This document shows, piece after piece, positions 5,894 to 38,768 of a stretch of DNA of 64,000 nucleotides. The DNA lies in assembly GCA_041478555.1 (NCBI GenBank), contig JBGOWI010000001.1:42073-106072 (forward strand). Direction: 5' to 3'. Position 1 is the first letter of the stretch. Each line of letters starts with the position of its first letter. This DNA comes from Phycisphaerae bacterium (lineage in GTDB: Bacteria > Planctomycetota > Phycisphaerae > Sedimentisphaerales > UBA12454). Below the pieces are notes generated by a model. The model was given only the letters and a program-made list of their open reading frames with translations, was not told the DNA's origin and did no database searches. Both the position numbers and the translations under genes were made by a program.

Positions 5894-8569
5894 ATGAAAG
5901 AAAAAAGAAAGATGCAAATTGAGCAAGGTAAGGCTGGCTCGGCTCTTATAATGACGGTGGTTCTGACTGTGCTGCTTTCGATAATTGCCGTGATGTTTGT
6001 GGCTGTCGCCCGGATGGATATGGCTTCTACGAGCAATATCGCAGACAACAAAATGCTCGATTCAGCGGTTAAATCTATTGTCGAGATTATCAATAGACAG
6101 CTTGTTCTCGACACGCCTGGCGTAGCAGTACCGACGCAGGAATACTATGATTATCCCGATTCTTTAAACGGCTGGCTCGCAAATCTTGAACCGTACCTTT
6201 ATGATGATAAGGGAACACCTGATACAAATGATGATATTTATTATTGGCGGCAAATCAGCGATGTAACAGGATATCTGTCGGGAAGGAAATTTGCTATAAG
6301 AGATGTTAGTGTGGACCCGCCGGGCAATGCAAAGGTTGTGAAAGAATATCCTGAAATCATATTGGATGCAAATGGCGAGCCGAATGCTGGTAAACTGGAT
6401 GATGGCAGGCTTAACAATGAGTATAGAGGGCAGGTAGCCGATGCTGATGGAGACGGTATCCTTGATTCAAAGTGGTTTGAACTGAAAAATATGCGTACGT
6501 CCAAGGGCAAACCGATTTATGCTGCCGTCAGAGTCATAGACAACGGCGGGATGGTTAATATTAATACCGCTTACTCATTCGACGCCGATGATGCAAACGC
6601 AAATGAAATTGACGGCTCAAGTCAGATGCAGGTAAATCTTAGAGGACTTTTGAAAGGAAGCGACACAATCAGCAAACTACACGAGGCCCGCCGCGGCAGC
6701 GGAGACCCGAACTGGGATAGTTTCAGTCGTAAGGTTATCTGGAATTATGGCGTCCCGGACGGCAATTATCTTCCCTTTGATATATCTGATGAACTTGAAC
6801 TAAGGTACAGGTATTGTATAGATGGCAAAATTATTTCACGATTCGAAGTAAATGACCCGTGTACTGTTAAAGGTGCCGGCACAGCAAATTTTGGCAACTT
6901 GTATGATGGTAGTACGACAGATGGCGATAACCCTTGGGCTTCCAATTGGCGTCTGAGTGACTGGCAGCACAGGATTACGGACCCCTGTTATCCCCATGCC
7001 GACCGCAGGCATTTGCTGACGGCTTTGAATCTCGACAGGATTATCGACCCCGATGGTGGTAAGATGACTAATATAAATGACGCTGATGTTAATAATTTAT
7101 ACAGTAGTATTCGCAGAGGTCTTTTTGATGCTAATCCTGCTTATCCAGATGTCAATGGAGTAGCTGCTCAAATCGCAGTCAATATAATTGATTATCGGGA
7201 CAATGATTCAAATGTTACTGCCATTGATGTGAATGGTGTTACTTATTACGGTTTTGAGCGGCCCTGCATTTATATATCAGAACTGGCATGTGATATTAAC
7301 GTAGATGGGCCTCACAGGTCTTACGCAGTTGAGCTTTATAAGCCTTATCCTGAAGATGGTGACCCTAATGGATGGAAGCTTTTTATTGATAGTGACCAAT
7401 ATGATGTTAACTGGTCGGGGACAAAGCAATTCTGTATTATGGCGTGGCAGGATTTGAGTTGTCCAAATTGTCCATTGACAATTATTGATTATAATAATGC
7501 TTCAGTCCAGGTATTTGATAATTCTGTTGCTCAGAAGGTGGTATTTAACACGGTAAGTGGGTCCGCCGATAGTATCGTTTCATTGGTGCGTGATGTTTGT
7601 GGTGTTAATGTTGTAGTAGATTCTCATATTATTCCCAAAGACCAGTTTCCGGAAGATAGTAGTGAACACAGTATCCAAAGAGATATTGCGAAACATAAAT
7701 GCATACGGCGTCGTTTGTGGGCAAGTGCTGCCGAGGCGAATACTCCGACGCTTGGGAGTGTGAATAACTACATCAGCCCAGACGCGAATTTAATTCAGGC
7801 ACATCCGGCAAACAGCGATTTTAATAATATCGGCCAGATAGGAATGGTTTTCCGCAAAGCGGCTTATTATAAATATGGAGACTTGCCGACCGATGTAATC
7901 GGCTATGGCGTTAATAAAACAGAACCTGACGTTCGTCTGAATCTGGCTGACCCAGATTTTCAGCAAGTTTTCAAATACCTGACCGTTATCGACCCGTACA
8001 ATTTTCATCCGACGGACCCCAATTATGCCGACGAGAGGAGGATTAAAGGCAGAATAAATATCAATACAGCGCCTGCGTATGTGCTGGCACAATTGCCGTG
8101 GGTTTCGCAGAGGAAAAATAACTACAATGATGCCAATCTCGCCAAAGCGATAATTGCTTATAGGGATAGAACCGCGGTGCCGAGCGGCGACCCTAATTAC
8201 AGTAATCGGCCGGGCGCTGCCGGTTTTGGAAGCATTGGCGAACTGTGCGATGTGTGTGATGTTAATATTAGCACTCTGAATTTCGGAATTGATTATTACA
8301 GTCGTGATGGTATAGACCAGACAGGATTTCCTGACCTGACCGGCAGTGATGGTGCGATAGATGATTTTGAGGAGCGCGATTTGATTTTCGCCCGAATCAG
8401 CGACCTTGTAACGGTTCGCAGCGATGTATTTACCGCTTATATACTGGTGCGAATCGGCACAGATGGTCCGCAGAAAAGGGTTATAACGATTCTCGACCGC
8501 AGCGGCGTAACGGCTGCCAATAACAGGGTTGCCATAAGAGCCTTCCAGCTTACGCCGGAAGCGAGGTAA
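5894..8569 (+). CDS. GspK-like pseudopilin, very large (891 aa)
   Basis: The N-terminal GSALIMTVVLTVLLSIIAVMFVAVARMDM is a non-methylated pilin-like helix, as in GspK. The C-terminal part carries GRININTAPAYVLAQLPWV (GspK-type INxNTA helix-hairpin-helix motif). It is last in the pseudopilin operon. Confidence 0.65.
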   Translation: MKEKRKMQIEQGKAGSALIMTVVLTVLLSIIAVMFVAVARMDMASTSNIADNKMLDSAVKSIVEIINRQLVLDTPGVAVPTQEYYDYPDSLNGWLANLEPYLYDDKGTPDTNDDIYYWRQISDVTGYLSGRKFAIRDVSVDPPGNAKVVKEYPEIILDANGEPNAGKLDDGRLNNEYRGQVADADGDGILDSKWFELKNMRTSKGKPIYAAVRVIDNGGMVNINTAYSFDADDANANEIDGSSQMQVNLRGLLKGSDTISKLHEARRGSGDPNWDSFSRKVIWNYGVPDGNYLPFDISDELELRYRYCIDGKIISRFEVNDPCTVKGAGTANFGNLYDGSTTDGDNPWASNWRLSDWQHRITDPCYPHADRRHLLTALNLDRIIDPDGGKMTNINDADVNNLYSSIRRGLFDANPAYPDVNGVAAQIAVNIIDYRDNDSNVTAIDVNGVTYYGFERPCIYISELACDINVDGPHRSYAVELYKPYPEDGDPNGWKLFIDSDQYDVNWSGTKQFCIMAWQDLSCPNCPLTIIDYNNASVQVFDNSVAQKVVFNTVSGSADSIVSLVRDVCGVNVVVDSHIIPKDQFPEDSSEHSIQRDIAKHKCIRRRLWASAAEANTPTLGSVNNYISPDANLIQAHPANSDFNNIGQIGMVFRKAAYYKYGDLPTDVIGYGVNKTEPDVRLNLADPDFQQVFKYLTVIDPYNFHPTDPNYADERRIKGRININTAPAYVLAQLPWVSQRKNNYNDANLAKAIIAYRDRTAVPSGDPNYSNRPGAAGFGSIGELCDVCDVNISTLNFGIDYYSRDGIDQTGFPDLTGSDGAIDDFEERDLIFARISDLVTVRSDVFTAYILVRIGTDGPQKRVITILDRSGVTAANNRVAIRAFQLTPEAR

Positions 8570-8588
8570 GAAGAAATTAAAAATTGTA

Positions 8589-8613
8589 GCCACAAAGGCA
8601 CAAAGGCACTAAG
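8589..8613. repeat. GCCAC-type 8-nt periodic repeat
   Basis: GCCACAAAGGCACAAAGGCACTAAG lies about 20 nt after the stop at 8567-8569. Confidence 0.6.
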
Positions 8614-8637
8614 AATATAGGAGTCAGAAGAGAAAAC

Positions 8638-8746
8638 TCGAAGCACGAAATCCGAAATACAAATGTTCAAAACAGTTTGTTTCGGTCATTTTGGAGTTTT
8701 GGTAATTCGGATTTGTTTCGGATTTCGATATTCGGATTTCGGATTT
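8638..8746. repeat. ATTTCGG-rich long hairpin element (copy 2)
   Basis: TCGAAGCACGAAATCCGAAATACAAATGTTCAAAAC ... GGTAATTCGGATTTGTTTCGGATTTCGATATTCGGATTTCGGATTT. It sits between convergent genes, and its right end overlaps the mcsB stop codon. Confidence 0.65.
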
Positions 8747-9794
8747 AGTTTAATTTCGCCCTTAGGGTCTCTGCGCGAAGAATATCTCTCTGTTCGGCAT
8801 CGAGATTTTGGCCTTTGTTTATCTGAAGATGGGCCGGCTGGGTAAGTAAAAACAATTCATTTATTGTGTCAATGGAGATTTCCTTGACTCTGCCCATATT
8901 GATTCCCATTCTGAGATTGCTCAAAAGGAACATCGCCTCGTGCGAGCTGATGAGCCTTGCACTTTTCAGTACGGCCAGTGCACGGGAAATTCTATCGTCG
9001 AGAATATTGGAATCTTTTACCAGTAATCTGTCGCGGGCAAGCCTTTCATATTCGACAATCTTTGGGATTATCACAGCCATGAACTCCTCGACAGTTTTTT
9101 CCTCGCTGATGCCGAGTGTAACCTGATTTGATACCTGAAAGAAGTCGCCGACCGCCTCGGTGCCTTCGCCGAACAAGCCGCGAACCGCAAGGTTCATATC
9201 CTTTGCAGCCTCGAACAGCTTCTTGAGCTGGTCGGTCATCTTGAGACCGGGCAGATGAAGCATCACAGAAACCCTGATGCCGGTGCCGAGATTGGTAGGG
9301 CAGGCGGTTAAAAAGCCCAGCTTCGGACTAAAGGCATACTCGATTTTTCTGCCGATGGCATCGTCAATATCGTTAATCCGCTGCCAGCATTTGTCCAGAT
9401 TAAGGCCGGCAGCCAAAACGCCAAGCCTTAAATGGTCCTCTTCGTTTATCTGAGCGGCAAAAAGTTCGTTTTTCGCGATTACAACACCTCGCGGCCCCTT
9501 TCCTGCTGCCAGATTGCGGCTGATAAGCTGTCTTTCAACGAGCAAATCTCGTTCAAGGCTGCTGCCGTGCGCTATATCGATAAAAAAGATATCGCCAAGC
9601 TCGCTGAGAGAAAGAATAGTCTCCTTGAGAATTTGCAGTATCTGCTGCTTTTGCTCATCATTACAGCGGGAAATGAACTTATGTCCCGACAGATTGCGCG
9701 CAAGCCTTATGCGCGACGATATCACAATATCGGATAAAGGAGCCTGGGGGCTGAACCACTGTGAAAGTTTCGAGCTTAATTCATTAAGTCTCAT
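8745..9794 (-). CDS. mcsB: protein arginine kinase (ATP:guanido phosphotransferase)
   Basis: SSRIRLARNLSGHKF and CPTNLGTGIRVSVMLHLPGL are guanido-kinase active-site motifs. 349 aa. Its start overlaps the mcsA stop by 4 nt. Confidence 0.85.
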   Translation of the reverse strand: MRLNELSSKLSQWFSPQAPLSDIVISSRIRLARNLSGHKFISRCNDEQKQQILQILKETILSLSELGDIFFIDIAHGSSLERDLLVERQLISRNLAAGKGPRGVVIAKNELFAAQINEEDHLRLGVLAAGLNLDKCWQRINDIDDAIGRKIEYAFSPKLGFLTACPTNLGTGIRVSVMLHLPGLKMTDQLKKLFEAAKDMNLAVRGLFGEGTEAVGDFFQVSNQVTLGISEEKTVEEFMAVIIPKIVEYERLARDRLLVKDSNILDDRISRALAVLKSARLISSHEAMFLLSNLRMGINMGRVKEISIDTINELFLLTQPAHLQINKGQNLDAEQRDILRAETLRAKLN

Positions 9795-13817: not shown

Positions 13818-14972
13818 TCAGGCGCCAAAGTTTTGGATGAAGGCCTGCTCGGATTTTGTCAAAGCAGCAATACCGCCAAGCCTCTGCGCATTATACCTGA
13901 CAAATAACGAGCTGCAAACGACCTGCTCGACAATTGAAGCAGATTTAATACTGCCGATGACAAACAGGCCGAGATTTTTTACGAGAAATGCAACAGGAGG
14001 TTTCTGCCCCTTTGCAATTTGTTTTTTCAGACCGGCGGCAATCTTATCTTCTTGAAGTTTTTCCAGCCAAACAGCAGGGCCGTTACAGTAAATAATCTCG
14101 TTCGGATTCAAAGGGCCGGCCTTAAGCAGTCGGCCTGCGTCTCTCTTTTTTGCAAAAGCTGATATTACATTGTTATGAAAAAAATGTAGCGCCTGATTTT
14201 GGCCGGTTGCTTTGAAAAATGCATCTTTGATTACCAGTTTTGCATTTCTTATGGCTTTGACATCAGGTTTTTTAATCTTTTTGGCAGCAGGGCAGGTTAA
14301 TTTCTTTCCGCAGCGGTTTATTACCTTCCAAACAAGCCGCAGGGCCTGCGCCGGTTTGGCAGCGGAAATAAAAAGACCGTGCTTTTCGAGAAATAATATT
14401 TGAGGCAGCTGGCCGTGCTTTTTCTGATATTTGCTGCTCAAGTCCGCAATTTTTTTCGCAAGAGCAAAGCCGGGATTGGCATAGGGAACCCATAATGGCG
14501 GAAACATTTCACAGGCAAATAATTTCTCAATTTTCACTTTGCCGTTTTTTGAATTTACAAAAACGCCGACAGTAGTCGGGTGAAGGTGAATAACGCACTT
14601 ATCGAGAAAGGCGTGGAGATTAGCCTCGATGGAAGGGCGAAAATTTCCTTTTGTATTATCCTCGCAGGCGGCCAGCAGCCGTCCGGCAACCGCAGTTTCT
14701 CGTTTCCGCAAACCAAGTTTCGCAAGTTTTTTGTCTTTGATTATCCCTCGAACTTTTGCAAGGGTCATTCTTCGCCAGCCTTTATTTTTGCTCATATCCC
14801 CCATCGCTGTGCCGCTTGCCTTTACGAACATAAATCTTTCGTCGGATGTCTTTACGCTCGTATTTCCGCTGCCGCCCTGAACAAGCCAGGGGTCTTTGCC
14901 CACCCTGCGGCTAATCTCTATCAGTTCCGTAAGTCCCGCACCTTCTTTATGTTCTTTTAATCTGCGTTTCAT
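13818..14972 (-). CDS. class II aldolase/adducin-domain protein (like the N-terminal half of aldolase/short-chain dehydrogenase fusions)
   Basis: LVQGGSGNTSVK motif near the N-terminus, and IHLHP. 384 aa. The assignment comes from remembered motif similarity only. Confidence 0.45.
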   Translation of the reverse strand: MKRRLKEHKEGAGLTELIEISRRVGKDPWLVQGGSGNTSVKTSDERFMFVKASGTAMGDMSKNKGWRRMTLAKVRGIIKDKKLAKLGLRKRETAVAGRLLAACEDNTKGNFRPSIEANLHAFLDKCVIHLHPTTVGVFVNSKNGKVKIEKLFACEMFPPLWVPYANPGFALAKKIADLSSKYQKKHGQLPQILFLEKHGLFISAAKPAQALRLVWKVINRCGKKLTCPAAKKIKKPDVKAIRNAKLVIKDAFFKATGQNQALHFFHNNVISAFAKKRDAGRLLKAGPLNPNEIIYCNGPAVWLEKLQEDKIAAGLKKQIAKGQKPPVAFLVKNLGLFVIGSIKSASIVEQVVCSSLFVRYNAQRLGGIAALTKSEQAFIQNFGA

Positions 14973-15001
14973 ATTATTGGCATTTCCAACCGGTTATTTA
15001 T

Positions 15002-15050
15002 CCCGCCACCTTCTTTTTATTCTTTTCTAAATATTTTAGAAGGTGCGGGG
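15002..15050. repeat. CCCGCACCTTC / GAAGGTGCGGG hairpin repeat (copy)
   Basis: CCCGCCACCTTC ... GAAGGTGCGGGG. The same arms recur at 16962-17008 and 29614-29721, with a half-site at 20042-20050. Confidence 0.65.
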
Positions 15051-15413
15051 TTCATTTTTGCCTGCTTTAAATAATGTAGGCTACATTTGACAGGTTTTTT
15101 TTGCAAGCAAAACCTGTCCTGAGTTTGACCTGTGGTGAGCGCAGTCGAACTGTCGAAGGATGGGGGACAAAAACCTCGCAAAAAGGCAACAGAGCAAATA
15201 TAATTTAACAGCCGAAGAATATGTAATGTAGAGCATGGAATATAGAAGGGACTGATTATGAGAATATCAGTTGAGGAAGTTTTTGAAACGGTAAGAATGA
15301 CTATCGAGCAGAGCTTCGATAGGAAGAATACCTGCACAAATCCAGGCGTTAAGGAATTAAAAAGTTAAAATTTTAATCTGCTGTGTTTCGTTTATCGGTA
15401 CTTTTAGTTTATC

Positions 15414-15454
15414 GTTTACAGTTTGCTGTTCACTGTAAACTGTTCACTGTAAAC
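15414..15454. promoter_or_regulatory. perfect 14-nt tandem duplication TGTTCACTGTAAAC x2 with an upstream inverted GTTTACAG; candidate operator
   Basis: Read directly: GTTTACAG at 15414-15421, unit 1 at 15427-15440, unit 2 at 15441-15454. It lies about 80 nt upstream of the ORF starting at 15537. Confidence 0.3.
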
Positions 15455-15536
15455 TTTTCATTTACGAGTCGCGCAACCACAACCGTTTGACGATTTTATT
15501 TAATCGGTGTAATCCGCGTAATCCGTGGTTTGAAAG

Positions 15537-16115
15537 ATGTGGAATATTTTTGAATATCCGTTTGTCGGCATTGGACTTGCAGTTGTTTCGATGATTGCCC
15601 TTTGGATTTTCGGGGCGTTTTGTCCTGCCAAGAAACGCCGGTGGCATTTTGCTGTGCCTTTCGTAATTGCAATTCTGGCGTTTGCAGTCGCATTTTTTGT
15701 TCAGACCGACAGAGAAAAAATCCTCAGCGCTGTAAGCAAAGGCATCAAGGCTTTCGAGCTGCAAAACATAGAGCCCGTTAGCCAAATAATTGCTGATGAT
15801 TATTCCGATGCTGCACATAGTTTAAAAGAGCTGATACTTGCCTATTGTCAGGCTCTTTTTCAGACTGCAGCAGTGGAAAAAGTAACCACGTTCAGCAGAA
15901 ATACTGAAATCAACGGCGTAAAGGCAGTTTTTACAACTGAAGCTCTTGTCAAATTTACAGAAAACAGCGAAATCGCACAGATGGGCAAGGCATTTCTGAT
16001 TGTAAAGGCAAGATTCTATTTTAAAAAGACGCCGGCCAAAAAATGGCTTATAAACAGTTCTGAAATCCTCGAACTGGATAGAAATCCGGTCAGCTGGAAC
16101 CAGCTCCGCAATTAG
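15537..16115 (+). CDS. hypothetical membrane-anchored protein
   Basis: Two N-terminal hydrophobic helices (VGIGLAVVSMIALWIFGAF, FAVPFVIAILAFAVAFFV) followed by a soluble domain of about 120 aa. No recognisable motif. Confidence 0.5.
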   Translation: MWNIFEYPFVGIGLAVVSMIALWIFGAFCPAKKRRWHFAVPFVIAILAFAVAFFVQTDREKILSAVSKGIKAFELQNIEPVSQIIADDYSDAAHSLKELILAYCQALFQTAAVEKVTTFSRNTEINGVKAVFTTEALVKFTENSEIAQMGKAFLIVKARFYFKKTPAKKWLINSSEILELDRNPVSWNQLRN

Positions 16116-16265
16116 GTTATTTATTGATTCCTGTCCAACCAATGGTACTGCACAAGGGATTTATATTTAACCAATGTTATAAGTAATTACCCAAAAAAAA
16201 GTTATAAATTAAAGAAAATATTTTTATAAAATAGTTAAATATTTACTTTACTTTTAATAATATTA

Positions 16266-16274
16266 TGGTATAAT
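16266..16274 (+). promoter_or_regulatory. extended -10 element TGgTATAAT
   Basis: TATGGTATAATAC lies about 28 nt upstream of the ATG at 16302, within a very AT-rich leader. Confidence 0.45.
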
Positions 16275-16301
16275 ACACCAAAATAAATTTGGAAAACTGT
16301 G

Positions 16302-16961
16302 ATGGCTGCTAAATGCAAAATCAATTACGTGATGTTGAAAGTAAAAGGTAATATAGTCAAACTTGACCCTGATGTTTATTACCGGATTGTGAACACAAAT
16401 CCTGAATTTCGAAGAAAATTCCAAAGGCCGTTAAATCTCGACAAAGATGGTTACATCTCTGTTCGCATTGGCAGTCATCCCACAAAACGTCAGAGTCTTT
16501 CTCATTTTGTGATGGACGCCCGGCCTGGCCAGATTGTTGACCATATCAATGGAAACCCGTTCGATAATCGCAGGGTCAATCTTAGGCCGGTGGACTTTCG
16601 TCAAAATAAATTAAACTGCAAATGCACTAATGCTACCGGTTTTTACGGCGTTTTAATCAAAGCAGATAGAGGTTATAAATATTATTTCGCGCAGTTTTAT
16701 ACTAAGCAGGGCAAACGATTGACTTTCAATACGCCGTTTACGGATGAGGGTTTGCTCCTTGCCGCTTTGGCGCACGACAGGTTCGTTTTTCAAAATGAGG
16801 AAGAGAACTACGCACGGCTTAATTTTGAGAATTTTAAATTCAAAACGTTTAAATATTTATTGTTAAACGCCGATTTGGATGAAATAAAAAAACAAATCAA
16901 AAATTCGCCGGCTTTACCCGCCGTAATTTCCCCGCCTAAGGCGCACGACCGCGATATTTAG
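16302..16961 (+). CDS. HNH homing-endonuclease-like protein with AP2-type DNA-binding domain
   Basis: GQIVDHINGNPFDNRRVNLRPV is an HNH_3-type motif. It is followed by TGFYGVLIKADRGYKYYFAQFYTKQGKRLTF..LLAALAHDRF, which is AP2-like. The architecture is typical of phage homing endonucleases. Confidence 0.7.
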   Translation: MAAKCKINYVMLKVKGNIVKLDPDVYYRIVNTNPEFRRKFQRPLNLDKDGYISVRIGSHPTKRQSLSHFVMDARPGQIVDHINGNPFDNRRVNLRPVDFRQNKLNCKCTNATGFYGVLIKADRGYKYYFAQFYTKQGKRLTFNTPFTDEGLLLAALAHDRFVFQNEEENYARLNFENFKFKTFKYLLLNADLDEIKKQIKNSPALPAVISPPKAHDRDI

Positions 16962-17008
16962 CCCCGCACCTTCAGTTGATTCAAATTCGAATATTCGAAG
17001 GTGCGGGG
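16962..17008 (+). terminator. 12-bp-stem hairpin CCCCGCACCTTC..GAAGGTGCGGGG directly after the stop
   Basis: The arms at 16962-16973 and 16997-17008 are perfect complements. The stop codon is at 16959-16961. No T-run follows; a -35 box follows instead. Confidence 0.5.
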
Positions 17009-17037
17009 TTGACTTTGAAAAGAAAAAGAGATAGAAT
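17009..17037 (+). promoter_or_regulatory. near-consensus sigma70-type promoter TTGACT-17-TAGAAT (cassette copy 1)
   Basis: TTGACT at 17009-17014, 17-nt spacer TTGAAAAGAAAAAGAGA, TAGAAT at 17032-17037. Copy 2 at 18041-18069 differs by one base. Confidence 0.6.
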
Positions 17038-17145
17038 TTTGTGCGTCATGGATGAAGCAACAGAGGAAAATTAAAAATCAAAAAGCAAAAGTCTACCTAA
17101 ACAGAGAGAATCGATTTTTTTATTAGTGACTAGCGAGAGTGACTT

Positions 17146-17631
17146 ATGAGATGGATTAAAGATTTTTGTCTTGAGATATTGAAAAAGTTAAAAGAGAATA
17201 TTGCTGCCGCAATATCATTATCTTTTCTTTTTGTCATATCTTATGTTTTTAAAAAATATTTAATGAAAGAGTATACTTTTACTCTACCTCTTTGGGTATG
17301 GATTGCTCTTTGCATTGTCATTTCCAGCACAACCGTAATCATATTAAAGATGATTGACTACCGACATAAACCAAAAGTCCTTATGGATAAAGATGATATA
17401 TTCAATAAACTTCATTGGTGGTTAGGGCAACAAATATGTTTTGTAAAAGAACAAACAGATGACAATAGAGTAGTTACTTGGCATTTCAACTTAATCGATA
17501 AAAAACTAGGACTTAAATCTGGAAGTGCTAAAAAATTCTTACCAGCAATGTTTGACACCAAGCCTAAACCATTTCCTATTACTATGCTGAACAAAGGTGA
17601 AGAAACTATCGCAATCCGCTATGATTTATGA
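17146..17631 (+). CDS. hypothetical two-helix membrane protein
   Basis: Hydrophobic helices AAAISLSFLFVISYVF and LPLWVWIALCIVISSTTVIIL, then a soluble C-terminal domain of about 90 aa. AT-rich codon usage. Confidence 0.55.
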   Translation: MRWIKDFCLEILKKLKENIAAAISLSFLFVISYVFKKYLMKEYTFTLPLWVWIALCIVISSTTVIILKMIDYRHKPKVLMDKDDIFNKLHWWLGQQICFVKEQTDDNRVVTWHFNLIDKKLGLKSGSAKKFLPAMFDTKPKPFPITMLNKGEETIAIRYDL

Positions 17632-17692
17632 CTTTGGCCATGGTTTCAATTTAGACTAATAAAATTATAAATGACAGAATAGGAGAAACAAA

Positions 17693-18019
17693 ATGCCGCG
17701 ATTTGAGGAATTGCGTCAGCCTTTGTCCGAGATTTTAACAGAGGATACTGGTTCATATTGGCTTGCCTATCAAATTTTGGAACGCTTGCGTATTCGTTTT
17801 CCTGAAATTCTCAGAGAACTGGAGGAACGATATGGTACAGGTTATGGAGTTGGTGGTGGACACCAATTCAGACCTGATAGCGCAATAGCATTATGTTTAT
17901 TCGACTGGCCGGAATGTGTTGAGACAAGAATGTTAAGAGGTAACGGTTTACGAATCGGAGAAATCATAGCAACAGATGATAGGATGGGAATATATCGCTG
18001 GATAGGACCAGTTACATAA
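17693..18019 (+). CDS. hypothetical small cytoplasmic protein
   Basis: 108-aa ORF behind AGGAGAAACAAAATG (a strong Shine-Dalgarno). No recognisable motif. Confidence 0.55.
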   Translation: MPRFEELRQPLSEILTEDTGSYWLAYQILERLRIRFPEILRELEERYGTGYGVGGGHQFRPDSAIALCLFDWPECVETRMLRGNGLRIGEIIATDDRMGIYRWIGPVT

Positions 18020-18040
18020 AAAAGGTTGATAAAAATTCGG

Positions 18041-18069
18041 TTGAGTTTGAAAAGAAAAAGAGATAGAAT
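18041..18069 (+). promoter_or_regulatory. promoter cassette copy 2, TTGAGT-17-TAGAAT
   Basis: TTGAGTTTGAAAAGAAAAAGAGATAGAAT. The spacer and -10 are identical to copy 1. Confidence 0.55.
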
Positions 18070-18212
18070 AAAACGTAGAACGGTTGAGGTTGCGAGGCTC
18101 GAAAAGAAAATAAAAAGTAAAAGGTAAAAAATAAAAACCACAGATTAAAAATTAAAAAATAGGTAAACGTCTCCTATTTATTCTGTTTATTATTCTAATC
18201 TGAGTTTTGCAC

Positions 18213-18701
18213 ATGAGAATCAGGATTTGGAAAAATTTGGCTAACATAAGATTTAAAGCGTTCTATACTAGCGAGTGTGCACACTTGAGTTATCATGCAG
18301 GTAATATAATCTCCTTTATTTTAGCTTTTGCATCTGCTTCAAGCGTTGCAGCTTGGGTGATGTGGGATAAATTTCCTTGGTTATGGGCTGGGATAGTTGC
18401 ATTTTCACAGCTACTTCATGTTGCAAAACCCTATTTGCCATATGTAAAAAACGAAAGGGATTATATTGAAATGTCCTTTGAGTATGAATATTTGTATATG
18501 AAATATGAGAAACTCTGGCATGAATACGAAAAGAAATATCTGGATGACAGACAGACCGAAGAACAGTTTTATCAGCTCAGAAATAAAGAAATTGAGATTG
18601 AGAGTAATCATAAATTAGTATATTGCCCAGAGATTAAATGGATAATGAATAAGGCAGAAAATAAAACAATAACTGCATTAAAATTGAATTTTTGTTTATA
18701 A
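18213..18701 (+). CDS. hypothetical 2-TM protein, possibly SLATT-like
   Basis: An N-terminal amphipathic helix, then a TM hairpin (IISFILAFASASSVAAWVMW / WLWAGIVAFSQLLHVA), then a charged helical tail (EYEYLYMKYEKLWHEYEKKY). The SLATT idea comes from architecture only. Confidence 0.5.
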   Translation: MRIRIWKNLANIRFKAFYTSECAHLSYHAGNIISFILAFASASSVAAWVMWDKFPWLWAGIVAFSQLLHVAKPYLPYVKNERDYIEMSFEYEYLYMKYEKLWHEYEKKYLDDRQTEEQFYQLRNKEIEIESNHKLVYCPEIKWIMNKAENKTITALKLNFCL

Positions 18702-18711
18702 AGGATGAATT

Positions 18712-18861
18712 ATGAATGAAAGCGAGCATCCCAAACAACCACCGCCACCACCTCCACCACCGACACATCCACAACCCTCTCCTATACCACCAGATCATCA
18801 GAGAGGGGTGCCAAATATGCCAAACATACCACCGCCACCACCTCGTCCACCACAAAACTAG
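18712..18861 (+). CDS. 49-aa proline-rich micro-ORF (not in the ORF track)
   Basis: AAGGA lies 6 nt before the ATG at 18712. MNESEHPKQPPPPPPPPTHPQPSPIPPDHQRGVPNMPNIPPPPPRPPQN, then TAG at 18859-18861. It starts 11 nt after the upstream stop. Confidence 0.4.
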   Translation: MNESEHPKQPPPPPPPPTHPQPSPIPPDHQRGVPNMPNIPPPPPRPPQN

Positions 18862-19031
18862 AGATATATTGCGGGCTTGAGTATTATAAGCAAAAAAGGA
18901 GGAAAAGACGTATTTTGTTGAATCGGCAGAGATTTTGGAAGATATGAAAAATCTTAAAAACAAACGGTTTTTCCGGATTTCGCCCACATGGTTAATACTA
19001 TAAACATTTTAGAGGAAAGTGAGTACCAAAC

Positions 19032-19757
19032 ATGGCTGCAGCGCATTTGTGTGTAGAGGAAGTCATCCAAGCATTGGTAGAATTGGGGGGAGAGGCCAAG
19101 TGGAGTGATATTCGAAAACTTGTTACAAAGAAACGTGGCAATTCCTATGCACCATACAAAGACTGGCTTAATTATCGCACTACTATGTTCCAACTCGTCC
19201 AGCAACATTGTGAAGGCTACGAGAAATTTATTGGCCCAATTCTTTTTCAAAAAGTCCACAAAGGACGATTCTTATTAGTCTCGACACAGCCTAAAGTATC
19301 GCTCACCACAGGCATAGATATAACTCATGATAACGACAAAGACTTCGTACGTATATTACCTATGAGCTTGACTCCGATCGCTGCGGATATTGCTGAACCA
19401 CCGATGCGTATGTCGTCGGAGATATATCGTATTCTTCGAGACACTAAACTGGCCCGTGAGGTCAAGGTAAGCCATGGGTTTCAGTGTCAAGTTTGTCATA
19501 ATCCTCCGTTGAAACTAAGTGACATTAAATTCTATGCAGAAGTTCATCATATCAAGCCACTCGGATCGCCGCACAATGGTCCCGATATCCAAGAGAATAT
19601 CTTGTGCGTATGTCCCAATTGTCACGTTCTCCTTGATTATGGAGCTATCTTGCTCGATCTCGGCCAGTTAAGTACTTCTACAACCCATACTATAGGCCGC
19701 AAATATGTCGACTATCATAACCAACAAGTCTTCCGGAAGGTTAAAATTGAGGGTTAA
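19032..19757 (+). CDS. HNH endonuclease with N-terminal winged-helix (Mrr_N-like) domain
   Basis: CQVCHNPPL...EVHHIKPLGSPHNGPDIQENILCVCPNCHVLLD is an HNH/McrA-type Cys4 plus His-Asn-His core. The N-terminal EEVIQALVELGGEAKWSDIRKLV is wHTH-like. Confidence 0.75.
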   Translation: MAAAHLCVEEVIQALVELGGEAKWSDIRKLVTKKRGNSYAPYKDWLNYRTTMFQLVQQHCEGYEKFIGPILFQKVHKGRFLLVSTQPKVSLTTGIDITHDNDKDFVRILPMSLTPIAADIAEPPMRMSSEIYRILRDTKLAREVKVSHGFQCQVCHNPPLKLSDIKFYAEVHHIKPLGSPHNGPDIQENILCVCPNCHVLLDYGAILLDLGQLSTSTTHTIGRKYVDYHNQQVFRKVKIEG

Positions 19758-19808
19758 GAAACCAATTCTAGTGAATTTGGTGCAGGCTAACTAAAGATAA
19801 ACGTTAGC

Positions 19809-19838
19809 AACCATTTTGCGCGCATACGCAAAATGGTT
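19809..19838 (+). terminator. perfect 12-bp hairpin AACCATTTTGCG-CGCATA-CGCAAAATGGTT
   Basis: Read directly, about 50 nt after the stop at 19757. The T-run is weak (AATTTC). Confidence 0.45.
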
Positions 19839-19951
19839 AATTTCTAAACAAAACGGAGCCATTAGATTCAACAGACGCGGCCGCCAAGGTCGGAGAAGAA
19901 ATACCTTAAGACGATTTTTAACTGCCACCAGTGCGCTGAAACACTCGATAC

Positions 19952-19982
19952 TCGCCGAAAGGCGAAGTCTCGCCAAAGGCGG
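19952..19982. repeat. hairpin repeat TCGCCGAAAGGCGAAGTCTCGCCAAAGGCGG (copy 2)
   Basis: Same family as 2764-2794 but in the opposite orientation relative to its flanking GGTGGC..TAAAAA segment. Confidence 0.55.
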
Positions 19983-20110
19983 AAAAGCGATTTGAGTAAT
20001 GACGGGGAAATTAACGTACTCTGCTGCCACAATACAAATAAGTGCGGGGTTGACCAATCGTGTTCGTTCTGTTATCGTGTCCAACAGTTAATATATTTGG
20101 AGTAAGTAAA

Positions 20111-22258
20111 GTGAGCGCATTGTCGAGAGTATTCAGATACATCAAGCCTCAATGGCCGAGGGTTATTCTTGTCGTCCTGCTGGCTATTCTGATTGGCGTA
20201 TTGTTTTCAATCAGCTTTGCTACGATTCTGCCGCTGCTGAAGGTTATGATGGGCGAAGAGGGCCTCGGCGGCTGGGCCGACAGAAAGGTCTGTCAGTGGC
20301 GATACGGCGTTGAGTTTTACGTCCCTGAAACCGCAGATTTCACCGGTGCCGGCACCAAAGATATAGCATATTATCTTCTCGTTACAAATGTCAGGGAAAA
20401 CAGTCTCGCTCTGAAAGCCGGCATAAGAAAACAAGACAGAATTACCAGTGCAGAGACACAATCGGTACAAAACGCGAACGAAAGAATTTTTGCCTCTAAA
20501 ATACTTCAGAAACTTGCAGCGGCCGGCGGGGAGAGAAATCTGAAAATACAGTTAATGCGGATGGATTCGACGGGCGAACTTAAGCAGGTTGAACTCGAAA
20601 TGGAGCCCGGCATCAAGCAGGCCTATGTAAATTACGTGCAGCGGCTGGCAAGTGTCATGCCGCGTGAGCAGAGCAAACAAGCCAAGCAGCAAACCGTTGT
20701 GACAATTATTCTGCTTATGGTTGTGGTTACGATAATGCGATGTTTTGCCGGTTTCTCTCAGGAATATCTTGCCAATAAGGTAGTCCAGACTGCCGTTACA
20801 AATCTGCGGACGGATGTGTTTTCGCATTCGATGGAGTTGCCGCTCGGTTTCTTTTCAAGCGAAGGCACAAGCGATACGACCAGCAGGCTGATTAACGATA
20901 TCGGCGCAATAAGCAAAGGTGTTACTGTTCTGTTGGATAAAGCCCTGCGCGAACCGTTAAAAGCCATCGGAACTCTGGTCTTTGCATGGCTCATAAGCTG
21001 GCAGCTTACGCTGGTTTTTCTCGCCTGCGCACCTGCAACGGTAGCGCTCGGTGTTGTTCTGGGCAGAAAGATAAAAAAAGCCACCAGGAAGGCGCTTCTG
21101 AGCAGCGCCTTGATACTCGGCAAACTCGAAGAGGCAATGCGGGCAATAGCAGTTGTAAAGGTTTATAATCGTCAGGATTATGAACGCCAGGTATTCAGCG
21201 GTGTAAACGCGACATTTTTGCGCAGGGTGCTTCGAGGCGTAAAGATTGACGCGGCAACGGGGCCGATAATGGAAGTGCTCGGAATGTTTGCAGGCTCGGC
21301 GGCTCTTATAGTCGGAGTTTACTGGGTTACGAGCGCTAAGATGGACCCGAGCGCATTTTTTACTCTGCTTGTAATGCTCGGAGCCACGGCTGAATCAATG
21401 AGGAAAACCAGCGATGTCTGGAACAAGGTTCAGCAGGGAAATGCTGCTGCGGAAAGAATCTTTGCTGTTGTTGATATGCCTGTCGAGCCTGAGAAAGAAA
21501 ATGCTGTATCAATCGGTGCGCTGAAAAAGCAAATTGAATTCAAGAACGTATCATTTTCATATCCCAAGAGCGACAGAAAGGTTTTGCGGGATTTAAACCT
21601 CACTATCGACGCGGGCCAAACCGTCGCTGTCGTTGGACCAAACGGTGCCGGTAAAACGACCCTGGTAAATCTTCTGCCGCGATTTTATGACCTACAGGCC
21701 GGACAGGTGCTTTTAGATGCGGTTGATATCAGGGATATAAGCCTGAAAAGTCTGAGAAGCCAGATAAGCATGGTCAGTCAGCAAGTTATTACATTTAATG
21801 ATACCGTTGCTGCAAATATCGGCTACGGCAAGACAGATGCTACTATGGATGAAATTATAGCTGCTGCCAAGAGAGCTTATGTGCATGAATTTATCGAGCC
21901 GCTGCCGGATGGTTACAATACGGTTATCGGCGAGCACAGCACAGGTTTCAGCGGCGGGCAGCTGCAGAGAATCATAATCGCAAGGGCGATACTGAAAAAC
22001 CCGTCCATTCTGATTTTTGACGAGGCAATGAGCCAGGTCGATGCAGACAGCGAAGCAAAAATACACAAGGCGCTCGCTGGAATTATGCGCAACAGGACCT
22101 GTTTTATAATAGCTCACAGATTCAGTACGGTTATGTCGGCAGACAGAATTGTTGTTATGAATAACGGCGGAATTGTTGCTCAGGGTGTTCACGAAGAACT
22201 TGTCAAGGACTGCACCTTATACAAGAGCCTGTATGAAACACAATTGATTGTAACTTGA
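20111..22258 (+). CDS. MsbA-like ABC exporter (fused permease/ATPase) with an extra-cytoplasmic insertion
   Basis: Walker A GPNGAGKTT, signature FSGGQLQR, Walker B ILIFDEA. GTG at 20111 lies behind TGGAG. About 150 aa lie between TM1 and TM2, including the PDZ-like stretch ENSLALKAGIRKQDRITS. Confidence 0.8.
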   Translation: MSALSRVFRYIKPQWPRVILVVLLAILIGVLFSISFATILPLLKVMMGEEGLGGWADRKVCQWRYGVEFYVPETADFTGAGTKDIAYYLLVTNVRENSLALKAGIRKQDRITSAETQSVQNANERIFASKILQKLAAAGGERNLKIQLMRMDSTGELKQVELEMEPGIKQAYVNYVQRLASVMPREQSKQAKQQTVVTIILLMVVVTIMRCFAGFSQEYLANKVVQTAVTNLRTDVFSHSMELPLGFFSSEGTSDTTSRLINDIGAISKGVTVLLDKALREPLKAIGTLVFAWLISWQLTLVFLACAPATVALGVVLGRKIKKATRKALLSSALILGKLEEAMRAIAVVKVYNRQDYERQVFSGVNATFLRRVLRGVKIDAATGPIMEVLGMFAGSAALIVGVYWVTSAKMDPSAFFTLLVMLGATAESMRKTSDVWNKVQQGNAAAERIFAVVDMPVEPEKENAVSIGALKKQIEFKNVSFSYPKSDRKVLRDLNLTIDAGQTVAVVGPNGAGKTTLVNLLPRFYDLQAGQVLLDAVDIRDISLKSLRSQISMVSQQVITFNDTVAANIGYGKTDATMDEIIAAAKRAYVHEFIEPLPDGYNTVIGEHSTGFSGGQLQRIIIARAILKNPSILIFDEAMSQVDADSEAKIHKALAGIMRNRTCFIIAHRFSTVMSADRIVVMNNGGIVAQGVHEELVKDCTLYKSLYETQLIVT

Positions 22259-28599: not shown

Positions 28600-29613
28600 T
28601 TAGCGGCCCGCATACATTTGCTGATAGTACTGCTGGTAACTGCCGCTGGTTACATCGCTGAGCCATTTCTTGTTTTTCAGATACCAGTCAATGGTCCTGC
28701 TTAAACCCTGTTCAAATGTTATCTGCGGTTGCCAGTTGAGTTGCGAAGTAATTTTTGAGGCATCCATTGCATAGCGCCTGTCGTGGCCGGGACGGTCTTT
28801 GACGTGGGTTATCAGCGATTCGGGTTTTTTAAGCAGTTTAAGAATTGTTTTTACAACCTCAATATTGGTTTTTTCGCAGCAGGAGCCTATGTTGTAGATT
28901 TCGCCGGGCTTTGCTTCTGTCAGGACCTTCCAAACGGCTCTGCAATGGTCTTCGACGTGTATCCAGTCGCGGATATGCAAGCCGTCGCCATAGACGGGCA
29001 ATGGTTTATCATTCAAAGCATTGTTTATCATCAGCGGAATCATTTTCTCCGGGAACTGATAAGGGCCGTAATTATTTGAGCAGCGGGTTATATTGTAATT
29101 CAGTCCCCAGGTATGCCCGAAGGCTTTGACAAGAAAATCGGCGGCTGCCTTGCTTGCCGAGTATGGTGAATTGGGAGACAGAGGCGTTTCTTCGGTGAAT
29201 TTGCCGGTCGGACCTAAAGAACCATATACCTCGTCAGTTGAAATCTGTAGAAATTTCTCATTTTTTTTATCGCAGGCGGCCTGCAGCAGAGTGAGCGTGC
29301 CGGTTACATTGGTTTCGATGAAGATTTTGGGACCTACAATTGAGCGGTCAACATGGCTTTCGGCGGCAAAGTTAATTATTGCCTGAATTTTGTATTTATC
29401 GATTATTTCCTCAACCGCTCGGCCGTCGCAAATATCAGCTTTGACAAAGACATGATTAGGGCGATTGAGAAAACCTTCAAGATTTTCAAGGTTGCCGGCG
29501 TAAGTGAGTTTGTCGAGATTGACAATGAAGCAATCGGGATGGTCGGTTAGAACCCATCTTACAAAATTACTGCCTATAAAGCCTGCTCCGCCTGTAACGA
29601 GAATGCTTTTCAT
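28600..29613 (-). CDS. rfbB: dTDP-glucose 4,6-dehydratase
   Basis: ILVTGGAGFIGSNFVR Rossmann motif and YSASKAAADFLV catalytic YxxxK. 337 aa. Confidence 0.9.
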   Translation of the reverse strand: MKSILVTGGAGFIGSNFVRWVLTDHPDCFIVNLDKLTYAGNLENLEGFLNRPNHVFVKADICDGRAVEEIIDKYKIQAIINFAAESHVDRSIVGPKIFIETNVTGTLTLLQAACDKKNEKFLQISTDEVYGSLGPTGKFTEETPLSPNSPYSASKAAADFLVKAFGHTWGLNYNITRCSNNYGPYQFPEKMIPLMINNALNDKPLPVYGDGLHIRDWIHVEDHCRAVWKVLTEAKPGEIYNIGSCCEKTNIEVVKTILKLLKKPESLITHVKDRPGHDRRYAMDASKITSQLNWQPQITFEQGLSRTIDWYLKNKKWLSDVTSGSYQQYYQQMYAGR

Positions 29614-29721
29614 CCCGCACCTTCTTTCTGCTTATTCTTTTTTAAAAAGTTGACGTATGCAATATTCAAGCCTTTATCCTTTCAAAGATATATAATACAT
29701 TGAATATTTGGAAGGTGCGGG
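29614..29721. repeat. CCCGCACCTTC / GAAGGTGCGGG long hairpin filling the rfbD-rfbB gap
   Basis: The arms at 29614-29624 and 29711-29721 are complementary, with an inner palindrome GCAATATTCAAG..ATTGAATATT. The element abuts the rfbB start codon and lies 3 nt from the rfbD stop. Confidence 0.6.
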
Positions 29722-29723
29722 AT

Positions 29724-38697: not shown

Positions 38698-38768
38698 TAC
38701 CCGGTGGTGTAATTGGTAACACAGGAGGTTTTGGTCCTCCCATTCCAGGTTCGAGTCCTGGCCGGGTA
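38698..38768 (+). tRNA. tRNA-Gln (anticodon TTG)
   Basis: Cloverleaf read by hand: acceptor TACCCGG/CCGGGTA, D arm GTGT-AATTGGTA-ACAC, anticodon arm GGAGG-TTTTGGT-CCTCC (anticodon TTG), T arm CCAGG-TTCGAGT-CCTGG. No CCA is encoded. Confidence 0.9.

Follow-up and report, generated by a model that had tools for sequence, protein, structure and literature searches.

A candidate mosaic defence islet of a Phycisphaerae bacterium with a divergent SLATT-like membrane protein and its proline-rich microprotein partner

The DNA analysed here, a stretch of 64,000 nucleotides from contig JBGOWI010000001.1 of an uncultured, Sedimentisphaerales-like Phycisphaerae bacterium (hereafter the window), carries an island of six genes on one strand (positions 16099-20037), placed between a conserved hypothetical gene and the gene of an ABC exporter. 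The island encodes, in this order, an HNH nuclease (HNH1), a membrane protein (P161), a small cytoplasmic protein (P108), a second membrane protein (P164), a proline-rich microprotein and a second HNH nuclease (HNH2). All the open reading frames (ORFs) listed in the preliminary description of this DNA are present at the positions that it gave. DNA of the window is also found in many sediment metagenomes. The part of the island that departs from the routine is the pair formed by P164, a putative membrane-permeabilising effector with a divergent SLATT fold, and the microprotein encoded just behind it.

The ATG start of P164 agrees with the N-terminus MRxRxW of its family. Homologues with 45-68% identity were found in metagenomes, in Vibrio, Neptunomonas and Rheinheimera, and in a metagenome-assembled genome (MAG) of the Crocinitomicaceae. 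A hidden Markov model (HMM) of the family, searched against 1.84 billion representatives, retrieved 1259 clusters at E<=1e-3 and 615 at E<=1e-10. Among the members collected by this search, two of 95 matched the Pfam family SLATT_4 (1.9e-5) and six of 95 the PADLOC model of SLATT proteins associated with reverse transcriptases (RTs) (8e-6), which was also matched by three of 19 close members (2.4e-4). Three models of two-transmembrane (2TM) effectors of cyclic-oligonucleotide-based anti-phage signalling systems (CBASS) were matched by eight, four and four of the 95 members.

The hydropathy profile of P164 has one clear segment (residues 29-51), to which the AlphaFold2 model adds a second helix at residues 55-74. 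The model has a mean pLDDT of 90.2 and is all-helical, with helices at residues 2-48, 55-74, 81-106, 112-132 and 142-159; a long N-terminal helix runs into the first transmembrane segment and is followed by the second one and by three cytoplasmic helices. The transmembrane hairpin flanked by cytoplasmic helices, which a SLATT protein requires, is therefore present in the model. When the model was searched with Foldseek against BFVD, the top matches were SLATT-domain proteins, mostly with probabilities of 0.99-1.0 and TM-scores of 0.53-0.65. The PDB contains no sequence relative of P164, and the fold search there gave helical-bundle noise only. Because the profile links of the distant members and the structural matches in BFVD both lead to SLATT proteins, we conclude that P164 is predicted to have a SLATT fold and to belong to a subfamily that lies beyond the present models. 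According to the preliminary description none of the three middle proteins has a recognisable motif; this holds for P161, P108 and a direct search with P164, but not for distant members of the P164 family.

In the literature SLATT proteins figure as mobile effectors or accessories that form pores in CBASS, RADAR and RT systems (bioRxiv 10.1101/2021.12.02.470933), and the SLATT protein ThsH as the effector of type VII Thoeris, activated by cyclic ADP-ribose (bioRxiv 10.64898/2025.12.03.692087). P164 resembles the effectors of these systems in its length of about 160 residues, in the succession of N-terminal helix, transmembrane hairpin and C-terminal helices, in its best structural matches, in the SLATT_4, RT-SLATT and CBASS 2TM matches of its distant relatives and in having relatives that lie next to TIR genes. 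It differs from them in falling outside every current SLATT profile and in the island having no signal generator of the SMODS, TIR or RT kind, none being detected in the window. The family moreover adds a translationally coupled proline-rich microprotein, for which no literature description was found.

This microprotein is encoded by the ORF that was first listed as a polyproline micro-ORF. The ORF is indeed present, but it turns out to be no aside. It has no match in Pfam, PHROG, NCBIfam or PADLOC. We inspected 45 metagenome loci and two genome loci; what follows describes about 45-50 loci from a family of more than 1000 representatives. In nearly every locus with enough downstream DNA, the start of a proline-rich ORF of 37-65 amino acids lies at -10 to +22 nt relative to the P164 homologue's stop codon, and this ORF was found in about 27 distinct loci from three phyla with the motif VPNxPxPPPPPP. 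The 26 distinct peptides come from Planctomycetota-type metagenome loci, Neptunomonas, Rheinheimera and other metagenome loci; they share an N-terminal 'MSN..KP', a variable proline-rich middle and a C-terminal 'VP(N/S/D)xPxPPPPPP(K/R)'. A regular expression for the VP[NSD]xPxPPPP-type core, which also admits [FM]PGH variants, fits 25 of them, and in the most distant family members (27-31% identity) the motif reads 'FPGHxNPPPPPP'. The exceptions without the ORF are contig ends, the L108/L110 lineage, where P164 has a C-terminal extension instead, and locus L147. The same pair occurs on the Chondrinema litorale plasmid NZ_CP111068.1 (Bacteroidota), where a 43-residue proline-rich ORF has been annotated by PGAP. 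Since position and motif recur behind P164 homologues, including this annotated copy, the micro-ORF is evidently a real gene and a conserved, apparently translationally coupled partner of P164. Micro-ORFs that are dismissed as noise can thus be conserved components, and annotation pipelines mostly miss them. The SLATT subfamily with a polyproline partner appears to be new to the literature, and no model of PADLOC, Pfam or NCBIfam covers it.

The neighbourhoods of the pair are, from a plain listing of neighbours, of defence-island type. The Neptunomonas pair is immediately preceded, on the same strand, by a ThsB-type TIR gene and a caspase-like gene; a caspase-like gene is also found beside it in L126 and a TIR-like gene in L127. 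A census of 79 neighbours of the pair included DUF4062, ThsA_Macro, CHAT, AbiJ_NTD4 and DUF6119, as well as a DNA methylase, a dCTP-deaminase-like gene, MazG and a Tn3 transposase. On NZ_CP111068.1 an AbiEii/AbiGii toxin gene lies next to the pair. Type IV Thoeris, which consists of a TIR protein and a caspase-like protease, is the known system closest to the Neptunomonas arrangement, where the P164 homologue and its partner follow such genes on the same strand; the published system has only two genes, though, the window has neither of them and the pair mostly occurs without them. As an observation in its own right, positions 6583-8640 of L097 (Neptunomonas sp. XY-337, SPLL01000008.1) hold the TIR, caspase-like and SLATT-like genes and the proline-rich micro-ORF in that order, which may be a four-gene variant of the type IV Thoeris-like pair.

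Because the pair usually occurs without a signal generator, we propose the microprotein as a regulator of the P164 pore. P164 would belong with those SLATT proteins that, as effectors of CBASS, of RT-linked defence and of type VII Thoeris, kill the cell by permeabilising its membrane. A cytoplasmic, C-terminally basic, proline-rich microprotein made by coupled translation would regulate this pore, either as an antitoxin-like inhibitor or as a sensor, and its loss or displacement during infection would allow P164 to oligomerise and to depolarise the membrane, with abortive infection (Abi) as the outcome. Runs of prolines are known to stall translation, and the run in the microprotein suggests that its synthesis may depend on elongation factor P (EF-P) and on translation capacity. 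One might go further and suppose that the pair is a self-contained and widespread abortive-infection module similar to toxin-antitoxin (TA) systems, working without a TIR or cyclase signal; the microprotein, with its runs of five to eight consecutive prolines and its expected unusual dependence on EF-P and on translation capacity, would be a short-lived gate or sensor of translation status, and the shut-off of translation by a phage would open the pore. We offer this extension tentatively and consider it rather doubtful. The analogy to type II TA and Abi pairs with a labile small partner lies in the two coupled genes, in the combination of a potentially lethal membrane protein with a tiny partner, in the apparent mobility of the pair between phyla and in its position near other TA and Abi genes. 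The P164 pair differs from them in the toxin-first order and in a proline-rich partner that has no DNA-binding domain.

SLATT proteins are among the commonest predicted bacterial immune effectors, and how they are restrained and triggered is poorly understood. A large subfamily that escapes the profiles (1259 clusters) and has a polyproline partner would offer a testable handle on this regulation, with the partner as inhibitor, sensor or co-effector and with a possible link to EF-P or translation stress. The other features of the island and its flanks are collected with the pair in Table 1.

Table 1. Features of the island and of its flanks (window coordinates; L040 and L047 are loci of relatives)
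Feature	Position	Strand	Remarks
Left flank: conserved 192-aa hypothetical gene with two transmembrane segments, outside the island	15537-16115	+	65-68% identity to the L040 and L047 homologues
AT-rich spacer with promoter-like site ahead of HNH1	16116-16301	+	TTTACT-16-TATAAT at 16247-16274, TG before the -10
HNH1, free-standing phage-type HNH (HNH_3 class) homing-endonuclease-like gene	16302-16961	+	Pfam, PHROG, phage tblastn
Hairpin CCCCGCACCTTC-N23-GAAGGTGCGGGG, 12-bp stem, directly 3' of the HNH1 stop	16962-17008	+	Repeated hairpin family
Promoter-like element copy 1 (GGTTGACTTTGAAAAGAAAAAGAGATAGAAT; TTGACT-17-TAGAAT) upstream of P161	17007-17037	+	
P161, 161 aa, 2-TM N-terminus and conserved soluble C-terminal domain of ~85 aa	17146-17631	+	Homologue clusters
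P108, 108 aa, small cytoplasmic protein, predicted winged-helix-like fold	17693-18019	+	AlphaFold2 model
Promoter-like element copy 2 (TTGAGT-17-TAGAAT) upstream of P164	18026-18069	+	
Motif CGGTTGAGGTTGCGAGGCTCG in the P164 5' untranslated region	18081-18101	+	Inverted copy at 15465-15485 upstream of the 192-aa gene
P164, divergent SLATT-fold 2-TM protein, putative membrane-permeabilising effector	18213-18701	+	162 aa
Proline-rich microprotein, 49 aa, MNESEHPKQPPPPPPPP...GVPNMPNIPPPPPRPPQN, P164 partner	18712-18861	+	AGGA 8 nt before ATG
HNH2, McrA/TagI-type zinc-finger HNH nuclease (residues ~112-240) with ~110-aa N-terminal domain	19032-19757	+	Type IV restriction candidate
Right-hand spacer	19758-20037	.	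Contains 129-nt piece 19893-20021
Right flank: ABC exporter gene, 715 aa, outside the island	20111-22258	+	Conserved in Sedimentisphaerales and other Planctomycetota

The surroundings of the island were compared by scanning the ABC exporter against 185,579 species genomes, which gave 80 loci, and by searching these loci with tblastn and blastn. The exporter is 75% identical to that of L006, from an 'uncultured Planctomycetaceae' MAG, and 70% identical to that of L007, from a Sedimentisphaerales MAG. DNA homology to the relatives ends at 16098, at the end of the 192-aa gene, and restarts at 20038. In L040 the 192-aa gene and the exporter gene are directly adjacent, an empty site of the kind for which the preliminary description had suggested looking. 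In L047 the same site holds another cargo of 3.9 kb (6397-9645) that encodes a dockerin-like protein of 250 residues, a membrane protein of 109 residues and a protein of 702 residues, and in L006 (6810-9807) the gene of a 513-residue Ser/Thr kinase and small membrane genes precede the exporter. The island genes are absent from all 80 exporter-bearing genomes; the recurrence of the same gene set at this site in relatives, which would speak against an acquired island, was thus not seen in any of them. To judge from these alignments, the island can safely be regarded as an insertion relative to L040.

Contigs of eight metagenomes span both junctions of the island, and a metagenome strain diverged by about 3% also carries it, including HNH1. 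In a sister strain an indel of 60 nt affects 16115-16176. No convincing joint of an empty site was found in the eight metagenomes. A single joint from 16962 to 18036, in run X6, has an anchor of only 24 nt and low coverage.

In searches with Pfam, PADLOC, PHROG and NCBIfam no integrase or methyltransferase family was matched by the island ORFs, and the nearest tRNA in the window is at 38698, in agreement with the first description. The hallmarks of an integrative island or prophage (an integrase or recombinase, a tRNA or att site, flanking repeats) were not found at the island. An 8-mer, TGTCCAAC, occurs at both borders, at 16132 and at 20078 (not 20079, as first given). It was considered as an att site or target duplication and rejected, being at chance level (P about 0.15): two 100-nt windows share some 8-mer in 13% of shuffles, and real windows at a distance of 3.9 kb do so in 17% of pairs. 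The match, already suspected of being accidental, is thus uninformative. An Rfam search of 14500-20600 gave nothing above threshold, only sub-threshold noise.

The stretch between the 192-aa gene and the exporter is AT-rich, as had been noticed, and it contains the GC minimum of the window: the 3-kb segment from 16001 has a GC fraction of 0.358, against a mean of 0.441 (standard deviation 0.024), and sliding values fall to 0.31-0.39 across about 15750-18750. The GC content is 0.356 (35.6%) for 16116-19031 and 0.377 for 16116-20059, compared with 0.443 for the remainder of the window. The low values are restricted, however, to P161 (GC 0.31, and 0.27 at third codon positions, GC3), P108 (GC3 0.30), P164 (GC 0.33), the proline-rich ORF (GC3 0.30) and the spacers. 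HNH1 and HNH2, with GC3 of 0.44 and 0.41, are similar to the flanking genes (0.40-0.51), so that the description of the whole 4 kb as AT-rich stands for the middle genes and spacers but not for the two nucleases.

P161 has two hydrophobic segments in its hydropathy profile and a family of 12 homologue clusters with 54-65% identity, one of them named as Planctomycetota; it has no match in Pfam, PADLOC, PHROG, NCBIfam or the PDB. The gene downstream of its homologues differs with the context, encoding 116 residues or, in other cases, 186 or 200. In L099 a protein of 281 residues (6908-7753), encoded two genes past the P161 homologue, has a match to PDC-S32, a candidate family of PADLOC (E=4.8e-9), and a weak one to ZorC, and a nucleotidyltransferase/HEPN pair is nearby. 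A paralogy between P161 and P164 was rejected, as neither BLASTP nor hhalign gave any sign of it.

The P108 family has 35 homologue clusters, all from metagenomes or MAGs, and no match in Pfam, PHROG, NCBIfam or PADLOC. Its AlphaFold2 model (mean pLDDT 84.6) has weak winged-helix matches only (PadR, Fur, FOXO and a Pol III subunit; E>=1.4e-3, TM-score <=0.48), and a kinship to the N-terminal domain of HNH2 was rejected by hhalign (probability 0.1%). P161 and P108 form an operon in the island. As a conserved pair they were rejected, since they do not occur together elsewhere: the close homologues of P108 (77-84% identity) stand alone, without an upstream membrane gene and without P161. One P108 homologue adjoins an Mrr gene. 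In L086-L091 (for example L087, 5863-6318) a conserved single-transmembrane peptide of 32 residues, MLLMSTTAWIVIGVAVVIVAVFIGTKIKDKYF, precedes distant P108 homologues, which have RRM, cold-shock and GroES/EL genes as neighbours; the ORF of this peptide is degraded in L092.

The island also contains a promoter-like element of 31 nt, GGTTGA[C/G]TTTGAAAAGAAAAAGAGATAGAAT, whose copies at 17007 and 18039 are identical in 30 of 31 positions and which has no further copy in the window. Copy 1 lies about 110 nt upstream of P161 and copy 2 about 145 nt upstream of P164. The DNA just ahead of the P108 homologue in L093/L094 is homologous to copy 1 and to the first part of the 5' untranslated region behind it, and for this reason the promoter probably belonged to P108 originally, P161 having been inserted between them later or lost in L093. 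The segment 18036-18069 occurs on 17-18 contigs per metagenome with varied flanks, several of them at the depth of this genome. Its summed depth is about 265 in X1, where the flanks have about 9-12, and about 113 in X3, where they have 2.6-5.9 (20-40 times). As so many contigs with differing flanks carry it, the element appears to be a highly repeated and portable promoter-like family that is not specific to the island, and its repetition is the reason why short-read contigs break at it. This suggests that imported genes have been wired into a host-wide promoter family. A separate motif of 21 nt, CGGTTGNGGTTGCGNGNCTCG, is found at 18081-18101 (+) and 15465-15485 (-), at position 4102 of L093 and, as a near-copy, at about 2003; it may be the binding site of a regulator.

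The spread of the element raises a different explanation, in which the middle genes are lineage-specific accessory or stress genes of a regulon with a multi-copy promoter, the SLATT-like protein and the proline-rich microprotein being a module of membrane stress or signalling. Each sample does have at least 15 contigs with the element, a copy of it also stands ahead of a P108 homologue whose neighbours are tRNA-modification and sulfatase genes, and the island is stable in all samples examined, the 3%-diverged strain among them. On the other hand, the P164 family is patchy over three phyla with 45-50% identity and occurs also on a plasmid; its members lie beside TIR, caspase-like, AbiE, Macro, methylase and transposase genes, which are typical of conflict systems, and it is only from such systems that SLATT proteins have so far been reported. 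We therefore regard a stress regulon as a possible but not a likely origin of the middle genes.

HNH1 scores 24.1 bits against Pfam HNH_3, 0.7 under the cut-off of 24.8, and matches PHROG_99 'HNH endonuclease' over residues 23-144 (E=1.6e-17). By tblastn it has weak matches (27-37% identity) in 285 phage records, many of them annotated as homing endonucleases. The match to I-HmuI (1u3e) has E=0.18 only; the catalytic DH..N..N residues are intact in the sequence. It had been described as a phage-type HNH-AP2 gene, and the phage-type HNH part is borne out by these matches, but the AP2 part was not confirmed: with residues 105-220 Pfam gave no family at E<=10, and the PDB search turned up no AP2/ERF chain; the PHROG_99 match reaches residue 144. 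HNH1 is thus like the HNH homing endonucleases of phages (I-HmuI-like, HNH_3, some with AP2) in its HNH_3-type motif, its PHROG_99 match and its weak phage similarity, and unlike them in its place on a bacterial chromosome, where it belongs to no phage, intron or intein that can be recognised and where phage genes are missing from its surroundings. It is best called a free-standing phage-type HNH homing-endonuclease-like gene, and is most likely a selfish element or the remnant of one.

The hairpin behind HNH1 is a member of a genome-wide repeat family, as its 12-mer recurs in inverted pairs at 14934/15039 and 29613/29711. The 12-mer (GAAGGTGCGGGG/A) has six matches in place of the 0.16 expected, which pair up as hairpins between genes at three positions (14934-15050, 16962-17008 and 29613-29722), the loops measuring 23-100 nt. 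The family looks like repetitive extragenic palindromic (REP) sequences.

With its 285 phage records and its PHROG_99 match, HNH1 also speaks for seeing in the island a decayed prophage or phage satellite, in which HNH1 would be the homing endonuclease, the repeated element a phage early promoter and the small AT-rich genes morons with a holin-like or superinfection-exclusion role. Small, AT-rich genes on one strand and a duplicated promoter would suit such an origin. However, P164, P161, P108 and the promoter element are without match in the phage collection or IMG/VR, and the P164 family as a whole has no member in the phage records or the IMG/VR scans. HNH2 has a single phage match, weak and McrA-like. 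Structural, replication and integrase genes are missing, as is an att-like repeat, and the promoter element is found on many non-island contigs at genome depth and before a chromosomal P108 homologue. A phage origin of the island is in our opinion improbable.

HNH2 matches Pfam HNH with 27 bits (cut-off 21.4) and HNH_2 with 25.9 bits (cut-off 21). In the PDB it matches TagI (6ghs, E=3e-15), EcoKMcrA (6ghc, 4.4e-7) and ScoMcrA (5zmm, 6e-5), and in PADLOC the model mREase_IV of type IV methyl-directed restriction enzymes (1.9e-8); the NCBIfam model 'PT-DNA restriction endonuclease' was hit below threshold. The motif CQVC...VHHIKP...ENIL...CPNCH of a zinc-binding HNH nuclease is visible in the sequence. 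Plasmid proteins that share this half are fused to YDG/SRA and to other N-terminal domains, which is apparently the modular reader-plus-HNH design of type IV enzymes. HNH2 is accordingly like McrA, TagI and ScoMcrA in its CxxC...HH...N...CxxCH layout and its TagI and EcoKMcrA matches, in having no methyltransferase adjacent to it among the island ORFs and in the SRA/YDG readers carried by relatives of its HNH half. The difference lies in the N-terminal 110 residues, which fit no known reader model: no SRA, SBD, EcoKMcrA-N or Mrr_N model and no PDB sequence was matched, and the sole hit was a weak one to DUF7517 (E=0.035). The earlier designation as a wHTH-HNH nuclease with McrA-like architecture is consequently upheld for the McrA/TagI-type HNH domain, but neither profile nor PDB search confirmed a wHTH or Mrr_N N-terminus. 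HNH2 is most likely a candidate type IV-like restriction nuclease, without methyltransferase, directed at modified invading DNA.

The preliminary description compared the combination of a nuclease with small membrane proteins to defence modules. The predicted SLATT fold of P164 and the TIR, caspase-like and AbiE neighbours of its relatives agree with this likeness, but the parts do not make up one nuclease-membrane system. When all the island proteins were searched with tblastn against all the loci fetched (about 60), no two of the five families were found together elsewhere, and it is for this reason that we do not treat the island as one system. A single cooperative defence system of six genes, with nucleases as sensors and membrane proteins as effectors, could be imagined from the common strand, the tight spacing, the arrival of all the genes in the same site and the known theme of nuclease plus membrane proteins in defence. 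It is largely refuted by the lack of co-occurrence, and moreover the genes have separate promoter-like sites, three or four at the least, a hairpin stands between units, and the HNH genes differ in composition from the middle genes. We hold it to be very improbable.

With moderate confidence we prefer to see in 16099-20037 a horizontally assembled mosaic islet of defence and selfish elements, made of four independent units, among them the SLATT-polyproline module, with functions deduced from likeness. The first unit would be HNH1 with its own promoter, the second P161-P108, the third P164 with the proline-rich gene and the fourth HNH2, and the second and third would each be driven by a copy of the promoter-like element. 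Each part with a relative has a known nearest kind (SLATT, McrA/TagI, phage HNH homing endonuclease), and as a whole the island is an ordinary mosaic. Apart from the pair its content is routine, consisting of a homing-endonuclease-like gene, a type IV candidate and two orphan genes, to which the placing of imported genes behind a repeated, portable promoter-like element may be added.

Several observations weigh against this mosaic of defence and selfish units. P164 itself has no significant match to a SLATT or defence profile (no Pfam family at E<=1; the best PADLOC 2TM effector at E=0.03), and the E-values of its BFVD matches are modest, from 7e-3 to 0.18. In the window tblastn with the partner proteins of P164 homologues found no TIR, DUF4062 or caspase-like gene, and cyclase and RT families were matched by none of the island ORFs, so that a SLATT system of the classical type, activated by a signal, is not present. 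No nucleotide-signal generator or RT shares an operon with P164, and TIR genes occur only in the loci of a few relatives. The neighbours of the pair are variable, without a constant partner. Nothing found for P161 or P108 themselves points to defence, and the genes around distant P108 homologues include cold-shock, RRM and GroEL genes, as a stress regulon would have it. Both HNH genes are host-like in composition, and the dependence of HNH2 on modified DNA is a guess, because its N-terminal domain matches no reader domain. Finally, the relatives with an empty site are distant (the L040 exporter is 55% identical, the relatives overall 55-75%), and for this reason the evidence for a hotspot or variable site is only suggestive; what looks like a hotspot may be ordinary decay of synteny.

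Some minor features were observed at the edges of the island. The 129-nt piece in the right-hand spacer (19893-20021) contains two CTCGCC..GGCG hairpins and occurs on other contigs with differing flanks on both sides, and a variant of it lacks 19950-19982. A structured RNA in 19880-20035 was rejected, the fold z-score being close to 0 for either strand. Just left of the 192-aa gene, a 36-aa ORF, MRISVEEVFETVRMTIEQSF... (15246-15368), is the 5' remnant of a UPF0210/DUF711-type gene whose remainder has been deleted; the full gene encodes 453 residues in L040 and L047. The ABC exporter (20111-22258) has a sub-threshold PDZ-like insert at residues ~97-141 (PDZ_2, E=2e-4), before its transmembrane domain, and full-length homologues of this exporter are kept in 80 Planctomycetota genomes.

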